Origin: an uncultured Planctomycetia bacterium
GTDB taxonomy: Bacteria; Omnitrophota; Gorgyraeia; Duberdicusellales; 4484-171
Direction: 5' to 3'
Length of the DNA stretch: 64,000 nucleotides
Assembly (NCBI GenBank): GCA_964489445.1
Contig: CAZAYU010000004.1
Location: 189 to 64,188, forward strand
The position numbers and the translations under genes are program-made. Positions 3,137 through 52,156 of this stretch are shown here, piece by piece. Under the pieces are notes generated by a model, which saw only the letters and a program-made list of their open reading frames with translations, made no database searches and had not been told where the DNA came from. The number at the start of each line of letters is the position of its first letter. Position 1 is the stretch's first letter.

Positions 3137-3712
3137 TTATAACTTGCTCTTTTTAAGAAGATAATCAAATTCGACATTTAAAAAATTTCCCGGACGTTTT
3201 AATTTCAAAGTAGTATGCTCGTAAGTAAACGGAATAATATGAGTTTGAAACATTTTAGGAAAAACTTTTTTTACAGTAAGCGAAATGCCTTCTAAGGCAA
3301 CTGAACCATTGTCGGCAATATATTTTCTAAACGCCGACGGTAAATCTACACTTAACTGCCAATAGCTTCTTTTCTTAATTGCTGTTTTTAATTTTAGCTC
3401 TGCATCAACGTGTCCTAAAACAAAATGTCCACCTAGTTTATCACCTAAGTTTAACGCTGGCTCTAAATTTATTCGATCACCTTTTTTAAGGCGACTAGTA
3501 TTTGTGCTTTTAAGTGTTGAGGCTACTGCTTCAAAGAAAAGCAAATCCTTCTCCTTGTATATTAAGGTAAGGCAAACTCCATTTACCGATATGCTATCTG
3601 ACTTTTCTGATGTTTGAGCAATCAATGGCGCTTTTACCCCTAATTTTATTAAGGAATTAGCTCTGAGTATTTTCTCAACTGTTCCTATTTCTTTTACAAT
3701 TCCGGTAAACAT
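3137..3712 (-). CDS. ribE: Riboflavin synthase alpha subunit
   Basis: MFTGIV... N-terminus and two tandem lumazine-binding repeats (ISVNGVCLT / SVALEGISLT). Confidence 0.85.
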   Translation of the reverse strand: MFTGIVKEIGTVEKILRANSLIKLGVKAPLIAQTSEKSDSISVNGVCLTLIYKEKDLLFFEAVASTLKSTNTSRLKKGDRINLEPALNLGDKLGGHFVLGHVDAELKLKTAIKKRSYWQLSVDLPSAFRKYIADNGSVALEGISLTVKKVFPKMFQTHIIPFTYEHTTLKLKRPGNFLNVEFDYLLKKSKL

Positions 3713-3882: not shown

Positions 3883-3999
3883 TTATTTCTTTTTTTTCTT
3901 CGCTGCTACTTTTTTCTTCGGTGCTGCTCTTTTCTTCGCTACCACTTTTTTCTTTGGTGCTGCTTTTTTCTTCGCTGCTGCTTTTTTCTTAACTGCCAT
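3883..3999 (-). CDS. 38-aa lysine/alanine-repeat basic peptide, histone-H1-like/nucleoid-associated type. It is not in the ORF track.
   Basis: Manual translation gives MAVKKKAAAKKKAAPKKKVVAKKRAAPKKKVAAKKKKK. A perfect SD GGAGGTG lies 7 nt upstream of the ATG, and the strong terminator is 60 nt downstream. Confidence 0.55.
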   Translation of the reverse strand: MAVKKKAAAKKKAAPKKKVVAKKRAAPKKKVAAKKKKK

Positions 4000-4141: not shown

Positions 4142-4507
4142 TTATTTCGGAGAAAATTTTATTTTTTTAGATTCTTTCCACAGATATTCCAAGTTATAAA
4201 ATTCTCTTGCCTCCTCAATAAAAATATGAAGAATCACATCGAAAAAATCAATAAGAATCCAATGAGACTCTTTGTCTTTTTCCAAGAAACTAATTCTGAT
4301 TTTTTCTTTTCGACTTAACCTTTGAACATTATCACAGATTGCTCTTACCTGCGCCGCTGACTCTCCGGAACAGATAATAAAATAATCACACAAACTGCTA
4401 ATTTCTGATACATCTAAAACAGTTATGTCTTTTGCCTGTTTATCTGAGGCAAACTGTGCTATTCTTAGCGCTATTTTACTATTAGATATTTCTTTTTTAG
4501 TATCCAT
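4142..4507 (-). CDS. rsfS: Ribosomal silencing factor RsfS (Iojap family)
   Basis: ...ITVLDVSEISSLCDYFIICSGESAAQVRAI... core motif of RsfS/Iojap. Overlaps the upstream peptidase gene by 11 nt. Confidence 0.8.
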   Translation of the reverse strand: MDTKKEISNSKIALRIAQFASDKQAKDITVLDVSEISSLCDYFIICSGESAAQVRAICDNVQRLSRKEKIRISFLEKDKESHWILIDFFDVILHIFIEEAREFYNLEYLWKESKKIKFSPK

Positions 4508-5765
4508 TGTTAACTATTTTCCTTATTTTTTCCTCAATCCCTTCATCGATATCACCCACGCAAGAAATACACATATTAGAAAATTTAAATATCGACTGCG
4601 CTATTTTTTTTAAATGTTGGGCATTGATAAGTTTAATCTTTTTCTTTATATCACTTAATAAATCTATCCTTCCTAAATTAATATAGCTTTGTGCGGCATA
4701 GAACATTCTTCCCCCCGGACGCTCCAAGCCCATAGTAACCTGACCCAAAAAATAATCTTTAGCTCGGGAAAGCTCTTTGTTCGAGACTTCTTTTTCTTTT
4801 ATTCTAGACAACTCATCCATTATCGTACGCAAGGCTATCAGTATTTTTCCTTTATCCAGCCCCACATGAATTACAAACGCTCCGCTGTCTTTATACTTTC
4901 GTAGCTCTGTAGAAACATCATAGCATAATGATTTTTTTTCTCTTAAGCTTTCAAACAACCGGCTACTCATGTTAGCACCTAAAATAATATTTATTAATTG
5001 AGCAGCTGTCTTATCTTTGCTTAGATAAGAAATACTTCTAAACCCAACACAAAGATGAGATTGATGAAGACTTTTTTTCTCGCATTTTATCTGTATTCCT
5101 TTTAACTCTACAGGTGCAACTGTTCTAAGCTTTACTCTGTTATTATTCGGAACAGTTTTTAATTTTAAAAAATCGCTAACTTCTTTTTTGCACGCTGCTC
5201 CGCTAAACGCAATCACTGTGTTAGAAGGAATATAGTATTTATTCTTAAAACTATTTAAATCATTTCTATTTATTTTATTTACAGTCGAATTATACCCGAT
5301 AATTTCTTCACCTAAAGGATGATTTTCCCAAAGCAACCTGTCTAAAAGCATAATAGCTCGAGGTGCCGGAAGATCATTATACATTTTTATTTCTTCTAAA
5401 ATTACCGTTCGTTCTTTGTTTATATCCGCAGTCTTTAAAAGCGGATTATACACCATATCTAAAAGAATATCTAATGTATACCTTAAATTTTTACTTAAAA
5501 AATTAGCATAATAAGCGGTTATCTCCTGAGAAGTAAACGCATTTAAATCTCCTCCCCGGCCTTCAACCTCCCGTTTTATCTGACGATGTGAATATTTTTT
5601 ACTACCCTTAAACAACATATGTTCTAAGAAATGGGCAATTCCCTTTACCGGCTTCTTTTCAAACCTAGACCCGATTCGCAAAAACACCCCCAAAGAAGCG
5701 CTTTCCATCCCTTGAAAAGGAGAAAAAATAAATGTTACTTTGTTTATAGTGTTTATTTCGTACAT
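4497..5765 (-). CDS. M16-family zinc peptidase (pitrilysin-like)
   Basis: Inverted zinc motif HFLEHMLFKGS near the N-terminus. 422 aa with two M16 halves. RBS GAGGTGG upstream. Confidence 0.8.
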   Translation of the reverse strand: MYEINTINKVTFIFSPFQGMESASLGVFLRIGSRFEKKPVKGIAHFLEHMLFKGSKKYSHRQIKREVEGRGGDLNAFTSQEITAYYANFLSKNLRYTLDILLDMVYNPLLKTADINKERTVILEEIKMYNDLPAPRAIMLLDRLLWENHPLGEEIIGYNSTVNKINRNDLNSFKNKYYIPSNTVIAFSGAACKKEVSDFLKLKTVPNNNRVKLRTVAPVELKGIQIKCEKKSLHQSHLCVGFRSISYLSKDKTAAQLINIILGANMSSRLFESLREKKSLCYDVSTELRKYKDSGAFVIHVGLDKGKILIALRTIMDELSRIKEKEVSNKELSRAKDYFLGQVTMGLERPGGRMFYAAQSYINLGRIDLLSDIKKKIKLINAQHLKKIAQSIFKFSNMCISCVGDIDEGIEEKIRKIVNNGY

Positions 5766-5868
5766 AACTGTCCACCTCTAAAGGTTAAAGGATAAAGGAT
5801 AAAGGATAAACAAAGATCATAGTTATTAGCTGATAGCTCGTAAATGATAGTAGATGATTACTTTTCTT

Positions 5869-29763: not shown

Positions 29764-31152
29764 TTATAAAGCATGAATCATTTTTTCGCCTAAAGCAACA
29801 AGCTTCTCACCTTCTTTTTTGCTTTTACTTTCTGCATAAACTCTAACAATTGGTTCTGTCCCAGATTTTCTAAGCATCAGCCAACTGTCTTCAGTGATCA
29901 ATTTAACTCCGTCAAGAGTATTGACTCTTTTGATTTTCTTCCCACAGAGGGCTTTTGGTATCTTAATGTCGGCAAGGCTTTTCTTCAAACTTTTTACCGG
30001 CATTGAAGTACGAGTATAGTGATATTTTCCGTATTGTTTATAGAATTCATCTAGCAGAGTGTTGAAACTCTTCCCCTCCGAGGCCATCATTTCTAGCATT
30101 AAAAGAAAAGAAACAGATCCGTCCCTTTCCGGTATATATCCTTGAAATCCGATACCTCCGGCTTCCTCGCCTCCAATACAAATAAGATTATCTGCAAATA
30201 AGCTAGATAGATATTTAAACCCGATTGGGGTTTCATAACACGCCACACCTAAAGAAAGAGCCACATTATCAATTACATTACTTCCAACAACAGTTTTTCC
30301 AATGCCCCCTTTCTCCTTACGGTTTTTAATCATGTGTGTCGCCAAAAGCGGCAAAATAATCTGCGCATTTATATAATTTCCTTTACCGTCAATCATCGCA
30401 ATTCTGTCAGCATCTCCGTCTAATACCAGCCCTAGATCGTATCCTCCCTTTTTCATTCTGCTGATTATTTCCTTTAAATTGCTCTCTACCGGCTCAGGAT
30501 GGATACCACCAAAAGAAGGATTAAACTGGTCATGCAAATATTCTATTTTTACTTTTGATTTACCCAATATCTTCTCAGCAAAATTACCTCCGGACCCATA
30601 CATCAGGTCCACCAAAACTTTCAGTTTTAGCTTTCCTATCTTTCTTAAGTCTATAAAGTCCTTTAAAAAATCAATTTGGATGCCGGTTAAATCATCCACT
30701 TTTAATAAATTTTTATTTTTTGCCGTTACAAAGTCTATTTTTTTAACTTTGCTTTTACCAAGATAACTTTCTACCTCATTAGTAAGCGATTTATCAGCTG
30801 AACCACCCTGAGGAGTTTTAATTTTTAAACCGTTAAACACTGCCGGATTATGCGACGCAGTAATCATCACTCCCAGCTCATATCTTCGATAATGACAATG
30901 ATAACTAATAGTAGGAGTAGGCACTGCTTTATCTGATAAAGTAACTTTAATATTATTAGCAGTAAGCACTAAAGATACCTCTTTAGCGAATTCTTTAGAT
31001 AAAAAACGACAATCATAGCCAACCACTACTTTATTTTTCTTTTTTCTTTTTTTCAGATAGTCAGCTATTGATTGAGCAACAATAGCCACATTCTCAAAAG
31101 TAAAGTCACGAGCAATAACTGCTCTCCATCCGTCAGTGCCAAACTTGATCAT
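29764..31152 (-). CDS. Phosphoglucomutase/phosphomannomutase-family phosphohexomutase
   Basis: GTDGWRAV N-terminus, phosphoserine loop TASHNP, metal loop DGDADR. Confidence 0.85.
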   Translation of the reverse strand: MIKFGTDGWRAVIARDFTFENVAIVAQSIADYLKKRKKKNKVVVGYDCRFLSKEFAKEVSLVLTANNIKVTLSDKAVPTPTISYHCHYRRYELGVMITASHNPAVFNGLKIKTPQGGSADKSLTNEVESYLGKSKVKKIDFVTAKNKNLLKVDDLTGIQIDFLKDFIDLRKIGKLKLKVLVDLMYGSGGNFAEKILGKSKVKIEYLHDQFNPSFGGIHPEPVESNLKEIISRMKKGGYDLGLVLDGDADRIAMIDGKGNYINAQIILPLLATHMIKNRKEKGGIGKTVVGSNVIDNVALSLGVACYETPIGFKYLSSLFADNLICIGGEEAGGIGFQGYIPERDGSVSFLLMLEMMASEGKSFNTLLDEFYKQYGKYHYTRTSMPVKSLKKSLADIKIPKALCGKKIKRVNTLDGVKLITEDSWLMLRKSGTEPIVRVYAESKSKKEGEKLVALGEKMIHAL

Positions 31153-46318: not shown

Positions 46319-48694
46319 CTAACTGGAAAGTAGTTTTTTAACCTTTTTTGTTATCGTGAGAATATTTTTTTCCTCTTTTCTATTGTATTCTACTTTATCC
46401 ATTAGTTTACGAACAAGATATATTCCCAGCCCCCCTATCTTTCTTTCTTCCAAAGGCTTGTTAATATCCGGCTCAGGAGCCATAAGCGGATTAAAAGGGC
46501 TGGCATCGTCGGTAACTTCAATAGTCAGTTCTCCTTTGGCTAAAACAAAATTAATAATAACCCAATGTCTTTGAGAATTATCATAACCATAAGTAATAAT
46601 ATTACTCACCACTTCTTCTAGCGCTAGATTAATGTCGTTTGTATCTTCATTTGACAAATCATTTTTTTTGCTGAATACGGAGACAATCTTAGCTAAAGTT
46701 TGAATTTCGGAAAGATCATTCTTTAAAGCAAATTTTCTTTTATTTATTTCTTCAACTATATTTTTTGTAGAACAAAAATATTTTAAAACCATAATTGTAA
46801 TATCATCTGATTGATCTATTCCTTTGGAGTAGTTTCTTACTTCCTTTAATGTCTTTTTTACTAATTTTTCAGCAGAATCATCCCTGTGAATATAAACAAG
46901 ATCTCTTAATCTTTCTTCAGAAAACTGTTCCCCGTTTTCGTTAAAAGCTTCGTTAACGCCATCGGTATATAGATAAATCACATCGTCAGGCATTAATGTT
47001 AACTTTCCTTTACCAAAGGCAGCGCCCTCAATTACTCCAACAACAGTGCCTCCTGTTCCTTTAATAAATTTAACTTCTCCGTTTCGACGAATAATTAAAG
47101 GCGGATTATGGCCAGCATTTGCATAATTTACTTCACCGTTTTCTGTATTAAGGATACCGCAAAAAACAGTAATAAACATACAAGAATCATTTTCAGCGAA
47201 AATTTCTTTATTTACTCTTTCTAGAATTTTCTGTGGTGCAATCGTTTCTGAAGCAATTGTTTTAATTAATGTTTTAACCACCGCCATAAAAAGCGCCGCT
47301 GGTACTCCTTTTCCAGAAACATCCCCAATCACAAAACAAAGATGCTTACTATCAACAAAAAAGAAATCATATAAATCTCCGCCAACTTCTTTTGCTGGAG
47401 CTAATACAGCATAAATATCAAATTCAGATCTTTGGGGAAAAGGCGGAAATAGTTTGGGAACAATTCCCATTTGAATATTATGAGCAATCCGTAACTCACT
47501 TTCCATTCGTTCTTTGATCACCGTTGTTTCTTTTAATTTTTTGATATATTTTTTTAGGGCTTCACGCATATAGACAAATGAGTTAGTAAGCTTTCCGACC
47601 TCATCATTGGTTTTAACTGTTGAAAAACTAAAATCCAAATTTCCTTTAGCAATATCCTTAGTCCTTCGCGCTAGCATTCTTAAAGGCTTGGTAATTGTGC
47701 CGGATATTAGAACAACAACAATTAATAAAAATAAGAATCCTAAAATACCTAACGCGAATACACTCTTATTTAAATTAATAATATCCAACATTAATTCATC
47801 TTGTGGAAAAAGCACTCCCAAGGACCAACCGCTAGAAGGAATAGGTTCATAAGCCATCCAACATTTCTTCCCAGTAACAATACTTTCAAAAGGAACAAAA
47901 CCAGAACCGCCGTTAATCATTTTTTTTCCTATATACCGAAGATTATCATCGCTGCGTGATTCAGCTACACTAAATATAGTTTCGTGCATAATTAGATCTT
48001 TATAAGGGTGAGTAACAATTATTCCGTTATCGGAAATTAGAAAACCATATCCCGTATCAGCTATCTTAATCGATGAAACAATATTTTGAAGCCAAGATAA
48101 AGAAACATCGGCAGTAACCACCCCCTCAAATACCCTTTCCCCGTTAACGTTACGATAGAAGGGAACCGAATAAGTGGACATTATAATATTACCCCCTCCC
48201 TCATCGTAATAGGGAGCACTCCAACCAGGCTTTTGCAGCTCTTTAGGCATTTGATACCAATCTCGATAAAAATAATTATAGTCATCGTTACCTAAATAAG
48301 TAAATTTTATATCACCATCATTCTTGTAGAAATAAGGAGCGAAATATACCAAATTTTTATCAAAAAAATTAGGCTCAAAAGCAATTGCCCCTCCATAAAT
48401 TTCCGGATTATTTTTAATCGCCAAGCGTAATAAGCTAAGCAGCTCATTTTTCTTGTAAGAAAATTTCTCCAAAGAAAAAGCTAAACTTTGCGGAACTTTT
48501 TCGATAGGCCGTAATACAGTTTCAATTTTATTTACTGTTAATAAAGCCAAATTTTCGGCATTTTCTTTAATTTGCCGAACAATAATCCGACGAGAAAAGG
48601 AATAATTATACCCAAATACAATTAAAAAAATAAACGTAGAACTGCATAAAATAGAAAAAACTAACTTAAAAGCTATTCCTTTATTTTTAATCAT
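46319..48694 (-). CDS. Membrane sensor with periplasmic Cache-like domain, HAMP, PP2C/SpoIIE phosphatase and a C-terminal RsbW-type GHKL serine-kinase domain (fused RsbU-RsbW-like protein)
   Basis: 791 aa. TM1 (~res 10-30), periplasmic ~270 aa, TM2 (ALGILGFLFLLIVVVLI), HAMP. SpoIIE motifs GGDLYDF, GDVSGKG, TDGVNEA, DDITIMV. C-terminal N-box LALEEVVSNIITYG, G1 EVTDDASPFNP, G2 IGGLGIYLVRKLMD. Confidence 0.8.
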   Translation of the reverse strand: MIKNKGIAFKLVFSILCSSTFIFLIVFGYNYSFSRRIIVRQIKENAENLALLTVNKIETVLRPIEKVPQSLAFSLEKFSYKKNELLSLLRLAIKNNPEIYGGAIAFEPNFFDKNLVYFAPYFYKNDGDIKFTYLGNDDYNYFYRDWYQMPKELQKPGWSAPYYDEGGGNIIMSTYSVPFYRNVNGERVFEGVVTADVSLSWLQNIVSSIKIADTGYGFLISDNGIIVTHPYKDLIMHETIFSVAESRSDDNLRYIGKKMINGGSGFVPFESIVTGKKCWMAYEPIPSSGWSLGVLFPQDELMLDIINLNKSVFALGILGFLFLLIVVVLISGTITKPLRMLARRTKDIAKGNLDFSFSTVKTNDEVGKLTNSFVYMREALKKYIKKLKETTVIKERMESELRIAHNIQMGIVPKLFPPFPQRSEFDIYAVLAPAKEVGGDLYDFFFVDSKHLCFVIGDVSGKGVPAALFMAVVKTLIKTIASETIAPQKILERVNKEIFAENDSCMFITVFCGILNTENGEVNYANAGHNPPLIIRRNGEVKFIKGTGGTVVGVIEGAAFGKGKLTLMPDDVIYLYTDGVNEAFNENGEQFSEERLRDLVYIHRDDSAEKLVKKTLKEVRNYSKGIDQSDDITIMVLKYFCSTKNIVEEINKRKFALKNDLSEIQTLAKIVSVFSKKNDLSNEDTNDINLALEEVVSNIITYGYDNSQRHWVIINFVLAKGELTIEVTDDASPFNPLMAPEPDINKPLEERKIGGLGIYLVRKLMDKVEYNRKEEKNILTITKKVKKLLSS

Positions 48695-49700
48695 TACTTA
48701 CACAATTTTTATAAAAATTATTAAACTCCGGAATTGCACTAATCATTTTAGCTTTTTTTAGCTCTTCTCCTACTCGTAAATAATCTCCGGGTGAGAGCTT
48801 ACCGGAAATTTTATTTTGTCCGCTAGTCATTATCAAGTCTTCCATTCTTCCCAGCATCCACTTTTGATGGACTCTATTCGCCGGCATATTAGCTGCTTTT
48901 ATGTACTTTAAAACTATATCTAAGGCTTCATCCTGATGAGCAAAGGCATACTCCCATCCTTTGATTGTAGCCATAACAAAAGAGCAGCAAAGACGAGGAT
49001 TACTTAAAAATGTTTCTTTTACCGTATAAATTCCATCTTCAGGAAAGCTTAAGCCGTACTCAGAAAAAAAGAATGTCGTTAACTCTTCCGGGTCGTAACC
49101 AGAATTCAATATGGTATGATATTCGTTGTACCACATGGCTGAAGCCACATCAATGCCTCCACGCAAAAACAAATTTACAGAATATGTCTGAGGAACAATT
49201 GTTACTTTAAGGTTATATTTTTCAATAAAACTTAGTGCCTGCATTTGAGAAATTCCTGTCCAAACTCCTACTTTTTTATTATTAATATCTTCTATTTTTT
49301 TAATACCGCTTGATTTTTTTGCCACCAGCATAAACGCTGACTTCTGCATTATCTGAGCAATATTAACCAATTCTAACCCTTTAGCATGAGCCTGTATTGC
49401 TGTATTTAAGCTTAGATTGATAAAATCAACTTTACCCTGTTTTAAAAAATCACAAGGGGAACACTGAGGACCTCCGGTTGCAATATCAAGCTCTATTCCG
49501 TAATCCCGATAGAATCCTTTTTCATAGGCTACATAGTATCCGGCAAATTGAGCCTGAGGGACCCACTGAGCAACAAACGAACTTTTTTCAAGATTCTTCG
49601 AGCTATTTTGAGCTTCAACTGGAGACAATAATATAAAGCGGATAAAAAAAAGATATGCGACTATACTTAAGAAAACTTTTTGGTTAGACTTAAACACCAT
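48687..49700 (-). CDS. NMT1/THI5/SsuA-like periplasmic substrate-binding protein
   Basis: Signal peptide, 337-aa type-II SBP fold by motif similarity. Overlaps the sensor gene start by 8 nt. Confidence 0.7.
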   Translation of the reverse strand: MVFKSNQKVFLSIVAYLFFIRFILLSPVEAQNSSKNLEKSSFVAQWVPQAQFAGYYVAYEKGFYRDYGIELDIATGGPQCSPCDFLKQGKVDFINLSLNTAIQAHAKGLELVNIAQIMQKSAFMLVAKKSSGIKKIEDINNKKVGVWTGISQMQALSFIEKYNLKVTIVPQTYSVNLFLRGGIDVASAMWYNEYHTILNSGYDPEELTTFFFSEYGLSFPEDGIYTVKETFLSNPRLCCSFVMATIKGWEYAFAHQDEALDIVLKYIKAANMPANRVHQKWMLGRMEDLIMTSGQNKISGKLSPGDYLRVGEELKKAKMISAIPEFNNFYKNCVSND

Positions 49701-49823: not shown

Positions 49824-50153
49824 TTATGTAGCGTCCTTCAACGCCTCCTCTTCTGATGAAGATATTTGGAATAATTTAACAAGTCCTGCTGTTTCAAAAA
49901 CTTCCAACACGCGCTCTTTAAGAGAAAACAATATTAATTTTCCAGAAACTTGTTTCACCCTCTTGGCAGCAAGCAGAAAAACTCTTAAACCCGCACTTGA
50001 TACATAATCGGTTTGAGAAAAATCACAGATAATCTTTTTATTTCCTTCTTCAACTAGACCAATAAGTAAATTTTCTGTCTCTTTCGCTGAAGAAGCATCA
50101 ATCTTACTGTCAACAATCATTATTTTTATATCGTTTACTGTTCTTATTCCCAT
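49824..50153 (-). CDS. STAS-domain anti-sigma-factor antagonist (SpoIIAA/RsbV family), paralogue B
   Basis: 109 aa. Conserved phosphorylatable-serine context DYVSSAGLRVFL. Confidence 0.85.
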   Translation of the reverse strand: MGIRTVNDIKIMIVDSKIDASSAKETENLLIGLVEEGNKKIICDFSQTDYVSSAGLRVFLLAAKRVKQVSGKLILFSLKERVLEVFETAGLVKLFQISSSEEEALKDAT

Positions 50154-50159
50154 AATTCA

Positions 50160-50169
50160 CCCCCCCCCC
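50160..50169. repeat. C10/G10 homopolymer in the ribosome-binding region of STAS paralogue B
   Basis: The plus strand reads A-C10-GG. On the coding (minus) strand this is CC-G10-TGAATT-ATG, so the tract sits 6 nt upstream of the start codon. Confidence 0.9.
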
Positions 50170-50185
50170 GGATTAAATTCACGCT

Positions 50186-50557
50186 TTATTCACTTATTTC
50201 TTTTTTTTGCATTTTATCAAGATAATCATCCAATTCCTCAATACTTGAAAAAATTTCCTGAATCGGTAAAGCATTGACAATATCAAAAACTTTCTTTATC
50301 GAAGAAGAAAGATTTACCATATACATATTCCCTTTGTTTTGCTTAAGATTCTTTTTAGTTTTAAAAATAACTCTCAATCCCGCACTGCTAATATAATTAA
50401 CCCTATCCATATCCAAAATAATAACCTCTGGGCGGTTTTTTAATATTGAATCGACTTCTTTTTCCAAGATCATATAGGTATTAGAATCAACAGTGCCAGA
50501 CAATGAAATAATAAATGTGCCTTGTCGTTTTTCATCTGTAACAACACTTAAAGGCAT
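50186..50557 (-). CDS. STAS-domain anti-sigma-factor antagonist (SpoIIAA/RsbV family), paralogue A
   Basis: 123 aa. DMDRVNYISSAGLRVIF conserved serine loop. RBS GGAGGAAATAATG. Confidence 0.85.
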   Translation of the reverse strand: MPLSVVTDEKRQGTFIISLSGTVDSNTYMILEKEVDSILKNRPEVIILDMDRVNYISSAGLRVIFKTKKNLKQNKGNMYMVNLSSSIKKVFDIVNALPIQEIFSSIEELDDYLDKMQKKEISE

Positions 50558-50848
50558 TATTTCCTCCTTGTTATTCTATTATCGTTAATTATCATTGTAA
50601 AAATTAGGTAAAAACAAACCCTAAATACTTTAAAAACATAATCCTAAGACTTAATTTTTAAGATATCACAGTTGTTAAAGATAGTCAAGAATCTACCTAT
50701 TAATTTAATCAAAATGATGGTTCTGACAAAGAGAAAAGGTGTTAGCACCTACAACCATTTAATCACAAAAAAATGTATAAATATGCATAAACAGTCCTTC
50801 CAGCCAGAAAAGATTCCGTTTCAAAAGAAGCGAGAAAACTATCTACTT

Positions 50849-51016: not shown

Positions 51017-52156
51017 TTATCTGAATAATCTTGAAATAATAATCAATAAGAAAGGTATTAAGAAAAATACACCAGCTACATAGAAAATAGCATACCTTCT
51101 CTTACGAAAAGCTAACTCTCCCAATCCCTTAGCAAGAGCTATTGGAATTTTCCTAAAGATTTTTATTGGATAAATACATAGTACTCCGACTAAATTAAAT
51201 AAAAAATGGACAAAGGCAATAGTAATTGCTGCGATATTACCAGTTGCAAATGAAGCTAAAATAGCAGTAGTCGTTGTCCCAATATTTGCACCTAATGTTA
51301 TCGGAAATATACACTCAACCGTGATAATTCCCGCGCCAATCAACGGAATTAAAAGTGAAGTAGTTATTGAACTACTTTGAACTATAGTTGTAAAAAACAA
51401 TCCGGCAATAATCCCAATAATTCCGTTTTGCTCCAGAACTTTACTCAAAGCAATCTCTGTATTTTTAATGACTAATGATTTCATCAAACGCACGATAAAG
51501 TATAAAGATGAAAAAAGAATCACAGCAGACAAAACTAAAATTAGAACATAACCAAACTTCTCACTAATCGGGAGAATATCTATAAATAGTTTTTTTATTA
51601 CATTTATCAGTGGTTGAGTAACTGTTTTTAGTGGACTAGTAAATCTAATTCCACCAGTATTCGAAAATAAATGAGCCAAGCCAGCTGCTGCTTTCTGTAA
51701 AAACCCAGTAGCAAGCTCCAGCGGAAACATTATTAGCACACAAATAACATTAAAAAAGTCATGAACAGATGCTCCAGAAATTGCTCTTTTGAATTCTTCC
51801 TTACGAGTAATGTGCCCTAAGGAAACCAATAAATTAGTTACTGTTGTGCCAATATTTGCACCCATAATAATAGGAACAGCGTTAGTAATGGTAATAATAC
51901 CTGAAGCTACCATGCCTACTAATATTGATGTGACAGTAGAAGAACTTTGTACTAAGCTTGTGGCTAAAATTCCGATAAATAATCCGGTAAACGGGTTAGA
52001 TGTAGTTTCCAGAAGTGCTTCGGCAAATCCCTTACCAAAACCTTTAAAAGCCACTCCCATCAACCCAATGCTTACTAGAAATAAGTAAAGGAAAGTAATT
52101 ACGAATACTAGCTTGCCGTAAGTTTTAAGTTTATCTTTATTCATTATTAAATACAA
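51017..52156 (-). CDS. Na+/phosphate cotransporter (NptA/PF02690 family)
   Basis: 379-aa polytopic protein with duplicated QSSS(T/I)T motifs (LVQSSSTVTSILVG / IVQSSSITTSLLIP). Confidence 0.8.
   Translation of the reverse strand: MYLIMNKDKLKTYGKLVFVITFLYLFLVSIGLMGVAFKGFGKGFAEALLETTSNPFTGLFIGILATSLVQSSSTVTSILVGMVASGIITITNAVPIIMGANIGTTVTNLLVSLGHITRKEEFKRAISGASVHDFFNVICVLIMFPLELATGFLQKAAAGLAHLFSNTGGIRFTSPLKTVTQPLINVIKKLFIDILPISEKFGYVLILVLSAVILFSSLYFIVRLMKSLVIKNTEIALSKVLEQNGIIGIIAGLFFTTIVQSSSITTSLLIPLIGAGIITVECIFPITLGANIGTTTTAILASFATGNIAAITIAFVHFLFNLVGVLCIYPIKIFRKIPIALAKGLGELAFRKRRYAIFYVAGVFFLIPFLLIIISRLFR

Follow-up and report, generated by a model that had tools for sequence, protein, structure and literature searches.

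Known G tracts and the present locus

Long runs of G or C are classic contingency elements. In Moraxella catarrhalis, a change of one G in the G(n) tract upstream of uspA1 alters the mRNA about 20-fold, and the lengths of this tract vary between strains and passages (PMC7302503). In M. tuberculosis, one additional G in a run within the espR 5'UTR raises translation (PMC11898584), and the G-repeat in the leader of H. pylori tlpB is the target of the RepG sRNA (PMC8295292).

The locus described here carries a run of ten G residues (G10) between two tandem genes for STAS-domain proteins, STAS1 and STAS2. Like the uspA1 and espR tracts, this is a G homopolymer of similar length in an untranslated region just upstream of a gene, and slippage-prone in principle; unlike them, it shows no variation in length and is missing from relatives, whereas the lengths of the uspA1 and espR tracts vary with measurable one-G effects. 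The tract here also appears to be the Shine-Dalgarno (SD) sequence itself, with a fixed 3' boundary. The tlpB repeat likewise lies in an mRNA leader near the translation start, where such a repeat could affect translation, but it is located upstream of the SD while the repeat here overlaps it; in addition, a cognate C/U-rich sRNA was not found in the 64-kb window and no strain-to-strain length variation is seen here. The canonical SD (GGAGG, extended AAGGAGGTGA) is matched in the placement of a G block 6 nt from the ATG, in homologous position and in complementarity to the anti-SD, and the gene here looks to be co-transcribed with its upstream neighbor. The differences from the canonical site are the central A, which here is a G and gives a G:U wobble, and the five extra 5' G's that make up a 10-nt homopolymer.

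The STAS locus

The window, which is the whole 64-kb stretch of DNA analysed, contains the following features at this locus.

46319..48694, - strand: 791-aa dCache-HAMP-PP2C(SpoIIE)-HATPase_c_2 protein (Pfam)
48687..49700, - strand: NMT1/THI5-like solute-binding protein (Pfam PF09084, E = 6e-40; syntenic in relatives)
49824..50153, - strand: STAS2, 109 aa, anti-sigma-antagonist-type STAS protein (Pfam PF01740, E = 4.9e-18)
50154..50185, - strand: intergenic spacer of 32 nt, STAS1 stop to STAS2 start (sequence, ORF list)
50157..50164, - strand: putative functional Shine-Dalgarno core (GGGGGTGA), composed of the five 3'-most G's and TGA (orthologue comparison and duplex model)
50160..50169, - strand: G10 homopolymer, C10 on the + strand (direct sequence; identical in 12 assemblies)
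50186..50557, - strand: STAS1, 123 aa, second conserved STAS subtype (Pfam PF01740, E = 8e-19)

N-terminal conservation in the orthologue alignment confirms the ATG at 50151-50153 as the STAS2 start. STAS2 matches RsbV (6m36) and TM1442 (1sbo) in the PDB, and its Ser53 (YVSSAGL) aligns with the phospho-serine of these proteins (YMDSTGL in RsbV, YMDSAGL in TM1442), giving it both the STAS sequence and the conserved, predicted phosphorylatable serine of the RsbV/SpoIIAA type. As in the RsbV/SpoIIAA-RsbW-RsbU modules, a PP2C phosphatase and an RsbW-like HATPase_c_2 kinase domain are present nearby, but here they are fused in one dCache/HAMP membrane sensor, the 791-aa protein, which is presumed to be the partner of STAS1 and STAS2. 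The module differs further from those systems in having two tandem STAS subtypes and no sigma factor gene adjacent to it in the window. Homologues of the 791-aa protein are named as SpoIIE family phosphatases and are mostly from Candidatus Omnitrophota; among the best homologues listed, about one in four (roughly 640-660 aa) has no kinase domain. STAS1 has a canonical SD of its own (AAGGAGG, 50563-50569), and STAS1 and STAS2 look co-transcribed.

Of the two conserved STAS types, type 1 has 121-123 aa and a C-terminal ...EELDxYLDxMQ tail, and type 2 has 106-110 aa. In relatives, the NMT1-like and dCache-HAMP-PP2C-kinase genes are accompanied by either of the two types; among the loci L018, L101, L102 and L128-L130, the tandem STAS1+STAS2 arrangement is found only in L018, the closest relative, as it is in the species of the window.

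Positions 50154-50185 read AATTCACCCCCCCCCCGGATTAAATTCACGCT on the + strand. With its borders, the STAS1 TAA stop (50186-50188) and the STAS2 ATG, the spacer reads TAA-AGCGTGAATTTAATCC-GGGGGGGGGG-TGAATT-ATG on the coding (-) strand. The G10 tract begins 16 nt past the STAS1 stop, and its last G is separated from the STAS2 ATG by 6 nt (TGAATT). A previous reading made from the sequence alone (the sequence-only reading) had described the tract as the sole long G/C homopolymer in the stretch and as highly improbable by chance, had placed it at the SD position of STAS2 with poly-G pairing to the anti-SD through G:U wobbles, and had proposed on these grounds a phase-variable translational switch. 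The descriptive part of that reading holds: no other G/C homopolymer in the 64-kb window exceeds 6 nt, and the window has six C6 runs and one G6. At the window GC content of 34.8%, the expected number of runs of at least 10 in 64 kb is 0.009 with independent bases and 0.030 under a first-order Markov model, so that the tract is unlikely for a stretch of this size. The Markov rate corresponds to ~0.5 per Mb, at which chance could produce roughly one such run per genome; a single run of this type in a whole genome is therefore not extraordinary.

The same position in relatives

No STAS2 relatives between 49% and 100% identity were found in the databases, and orthologous loci were found via the 791-aa protein. 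The set of 29 relatives compared consists of the two closest (L018 and L101) and 27 more distant loci, 26 STAS2-type. The sequences upstream of the start codon in the named loci are as follows.

L018: phosphatase 86% and STAS2 66% identical, gene order STAS1-STAS2-NMT1-phosphatase; ...AATTTAATCC-GGAGG-TAAGCC-ATG
L101: phosphatase 68% identical, STAS2-type; GC-GGAGG-TGAAGG-ATG
L128: STAS2-type; AAGGGAGGTTAAT-ATG
L129: STAS2-type; TTAGGAGGTTGAATCA-ATG
L102: STAS1-type; AGGAGG
L130: STAS1-type; AGGAGG

Both of the closest relatives have GGAGG exactly 6 nt before the equivalent STAS2 ATG, the same gap as in the window, which bears out the placement of the tract at the SD position. In L018 the bases directly 5' of GGAGG are AATCC. 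The flank AATTTAATCC is common to the window and L018, and together with the equal gap to the ATG this indicates that GGAGG, after a change of its A to G, is represented by the five 3'-most G's of the tract. By this alignment, the remaining five G's appear to be an addition on the 5' side. The SDs of L128, L129, L102 and L130 are GGGAGG, GGAGG or AGGAGG, and 24 more distant STAS2-like metagenome loci also have ordinary SDs, GGAGG in most cases and GGGGAG or GGGGGAG in a few, with no long G run at the SD in any of the 24. The GGGGAG and GGGGGAG sites suggest that the A-to-G step does happen. A G tract at the homologous position was found in none of the 29 relatives, all of which have ordinary SDs, and by this comparison the G10 tract is lineage-specific.

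Pairing with the anti-Shine-Dalgarno sequence

The purine-rich tract is complementary to the 3' tail of the 16S rRNA, for which the canonical sequence (GAUCACCUCCUUU) was assumed, and the 6 nt between its last G and the start codon are within the ~5-10 nt usual for an SD. With this assumed anti-SD, the region upstream of STAS2 forms a duplex of -16.1 kcal/mol, the strongest among 53 ORF upstream regions in the window. Canonical SDs are in use elsewhere in the window, by STAS1 (AAGGAGG) and rho (AAGGAGGTTGA), and a G5-type SD (AAGGGGGA) precedes another gene (29764-31152). In silico, the tract was replaced by G0 to G14 or by GGAGG, and the unpaired probability was averaged over positions -12 to +3. 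The values below come from a thermodynamic model that ignores kinetics, low temperature and trans factors.

GGAGG: duplex -15.4 kcal/mol, mean unpaired probability 0.50
G3: duplex -8.4 kcal/mol, mean unpaired probability 0.56
G4: duplex -10.9 kcal/mol, mean unpaired probability 0.49
G5: duplex -14.5 kcal/mol, mean unpaired probability 0.61
G6: duplex -15.3 kcal/mol, mean unpaired probability 0.42
G8-G14: duplex -16.0 to -16.1 kcal/mol, mean unpaired probability 0.30-0.38

In the modelled duplexes, the register for G8-G14 is always anchored on the 3' GGGGGUGA, and the SD core serves as the anchor for every length of at least G5, with weakening of the duplex beginning only at G4 or below. Because the tract lies wholly 5' of the constant TGAATT, slippage cannot change the distance between the AUG and the SD at its 3' end. 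The gain or loss of 1-4 G's is accordingly predicted by the model to be phenotypically silent, and only a contraction of at least 6 G's would be predicted to weaken the site.

Assemblies and samples

The G10 tract and its flanks are identical in 12 of 12 assemblies from three pipelines, the contigs having been retrieved by exact-protein look-ups with STAS2, STAS1 and the NMT1-like protein. These comprise five MEGAHIT/ENA assemblies (ERZ27315937, ERZ27316143, ERZ27315652, ERZ27315643 and ERZ27315617), four Logan assemblies (SRR7526679, SRR7529181, SRR7529149 and SRR7529180) and three JGI assemblies (3300022826, 3300023253 and 3300022871). The assemblies come from Ace Lake in Antarctica, where the JGI samples were taken at the interface (13.5 m, 26 Nov 2013; 13.4 m, 4 Dec 2014) and in the lower zone (14 m, 4 Dec 2014) (PMC7416419 and its supplement). 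Candidatus Omnitrophota have been reported from the lower zone of Ace Lake. All these contigs are 100% identical to the window across 4-5 kb and thus sample a single clonal lake population; some of the assemblies are probably re-assemblies from the same reads.

An apparent rearrangement at tRNA-Gln was rejected, as the seemingly different upstream gene is a truncated Na/Pi cotransporter call and the contigs are 100% identical. The contig ends close to the tract were likewise rejected as a sign of heterogeneity, being 26 and 44 nt away from it, with many other breaks spread over the locus.

Origin and function of the tract

The G10 tract is probably an ordinary strong ribosome binding site (RBS) of STAS2 that carries a near-neutral homopolymer expansion of GGAGG. 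The ancestral site would have been GGAGG(TGA), 6 nt before the ATG and equivalent in position to the SD core GGGGGTGA, and a change of A to G in this lineage would have given G5. Five further G's would then have been gained on the 5' side, by slippage or by one 5-nt duplication. The 3'-most GGGGGUGA would pair with the 16S anti-SD (CCUCC plus flank) at a normal distance and with one G:U wobble, and the extra G's would merely lengthen the duplex upstream through G:U pairs, leaving the tract to act as an ordinary strong RBS for a gene co-transcribed with STAS1. Since changes among the 5' G's are predicted to alter neither spacing nor pairing, changes in length would be nearly neutral, which would have allowed the run to grow; the same property would make it a poor switch. 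The mutability of the tract probably exceeds that of average DNA, as with any G10. This explanation has to accommodate the rarity of G10 in the window, and pure neutrality is an assumption. The ~20-fold effect of a single G at uspA1 arises by a mechanism that models of this kind would miss (PMC7302503), and the +1 G in espR raises translation (PMC11898584); the model used here, with its assumed 16S tail, takes no account of kinetics, low temperature or trans factors. In an AT-rich genome, a G-rich SD is a natural seed for the growth of a G run, and near-neutrality is to be expected of a homopolymer that lengthens an SD only in the 5' direction; such runs should therefore not be called switches unless there is evidence of length polymorphism.

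A second explanation, which we regard as unlikely, is that the tract is a selected, unusually strong SD or standby site that holds 30S subunits or ribosomes terminating on STAS1 and so raises or stabilises translation of STAS2, for example in the cold, with its length fixed by selection. The duplex predicted for STAS2 is the strongest of the 53 upstream regions, the tract could capture terminating ribosomes from its position 16 nt past the STAS1 stop, and its length is invariant in all 12 assemblies. However, the modelled gain over the ancestral GGAGGTGA amounts to only 0.7 kcal/mol, no relative shows a trend to longer G runs, and clonality explains the invariance equally well.

The phase-variable switch proposed in the sequence-only reading is about as unlikely, and no positive evidence speaks for it. 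Slipped-strand changes in the length of the G tract would alter translation of STAS2, and hence the STAS1:STAS2 ratio in the partner-switching module, in the manner of a switch or rheostat. The tract does lie on the RBS, and its length of 10 is above the ~8 or more at which G/C runs become hypermutable simple-sequence repeats and within the hypermutable range of Campylobacter, Neisseria and Moraxella (PMC7302503). Expansion from G5 also implies slippage or duplication at least once. Against this, the reading suggested inspecting other assemblies for heterogeneity in length, and none appeared there, as every assembly has exactly G10, including those from samples of Nov 2013 and Dec 2014. This invariance argues weakly against variability, because the assemblies derive from one clonal population and are consensus sequences, which hide minor variants. 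The presence of ordinary SDs in all of the relatives is one half of the outcome which that reading had itself named as counting against a switch. Its further claim, that slippage would move or weaken the SD relative to the ATG, does not hold with the fixed TGAATT spacer and the modelled equivalence of G8-G14, in which a change of one unit leaves energy, register and accessibility equal in silico. A weakening that needs the loss of six or more G's would not amount to a reversible one-step switch, and the geometry is thus unsuited to the function proposed. Were the switch real, it would extend homopolymer phase variation to an environmental candidate phylum and to a signalling module, the known cases being surface antigens.

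In a related and improbable version, an Antarctic-lake member of the Omnitrophota, free-living or episymbiotic, would have a genuine contingency tract here, with length variants at the level of reads tuning the ratio of the two antagonist paralogues. Such a tract would possibly act via a trans factor or low-temperature ribosome kinetics, without simple SD spacing, and the output of the partner-switching module would then be heritably heterogeneous within a clonal population.

It is very unlikely that the tract is a regulatory G-repeat, either as the target of a C/U-rich sRNA or of a protein or as a hairpin loop in a structure masking the AUG, so that translation of STAS2 would be conditional. 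Folding predicts a hairpin (-6.9 kcal/mol) with a stem formed by GCGUGAAUUUAAUCC and GGGUGAAUUAUG and a loop of six G's. The modelled accessibility of the SD and AUG falls from 0.5-0.6 with G3-G5 or GGAGG to ~0.31 with G7 and above, a drop which this G6-loop hairpin would explain. The hairpin is weak, though, and no better than those of shuffled sequences (z = -1.7 for 51 nt and -0.67 for 91 nt), and it is absent in L018 and L101; the sequestering hairpin was rejected on these grounds. When both strands of the 64 kb were scanned for duplexes, the C/U-rich matches numbered in the thousands and were non-specific, the best of them all being antisense to coding genes, and an antisense partner in the window was rejected as well. 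The region has no match in Rfam and was rejected as a known RNA family. Two other roles were considered: no ORF crosses the tract on either strand, so it does not lie within a coding sequence, and no promoter-like or terminator-like consensus was found to span it, which led to rejection of a promoter with the tract inside its -35/-10 spacer.

Finally, the sequence-only reading also raised an assembly artefact. An error in assembly or sequencing, for instance through a poly-G signal of Illumina reads or the mis-joining of a contig, is hardly credible and effectively refuted. Two contigs do end less than 50 nt from the tract (the start of L008 is 44 nt ahead of it and the end of L017 is 26 nt beyond it), as would fit read quality falling around G runs. 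Against an error, G10 recurs with unchanged unique flanks in all 12 assemblies and all three pipelines, both flanking STAS genes are intact and syntenic as in L018, and the tract lies inside contigs as long as 194 kb.

Other features of the window

Contig ends are shared at two other positions: L004 and L134 both end at ~46448, near a C6 run (46430-46435), and L001 and L017 both end at 51804. These shared ends at ~46448 and ~51804 hint at local drops in coverage or at strain micro-heterogeneity.

Two further repeats were noted. At 5779-5810, the gene strand (-) carries three copies of the heptamer TTTATCC followed by TTTAACC (TRF: TAAAGGA x4.6, 96% matches), directly upstream of the SD (GAGGTGGA) and ATG of the ORF at 4497-5765; this could be a regulator-binding array or another upstream simple-sequence repeat. 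An 18-nt tandem repeat of 5.5 copies (GCAGCAGCGAAGAAAAAA on the - strand) is located at 3892-3990, between the ORFs at 3137-3712 and 4142-4507, and would be Ala/Lys-rich if coding.

The content of the window is chromosomal housekeeping, including PolA, Rho, ribosomal protein S1, DXS, GltX, glycogen synthase and BatD. Of 59 ORFs with 120 aa or more, 51 are on the - strand, among them all those with a domain match, and the eight on the + strand mostly overlap them. The + strand is skewed, with C exceeding G (13509 vs 8743) and T exceeding A, and the strand bias and skew are consistent with a single replichore in which the genes are fully co-oriented.
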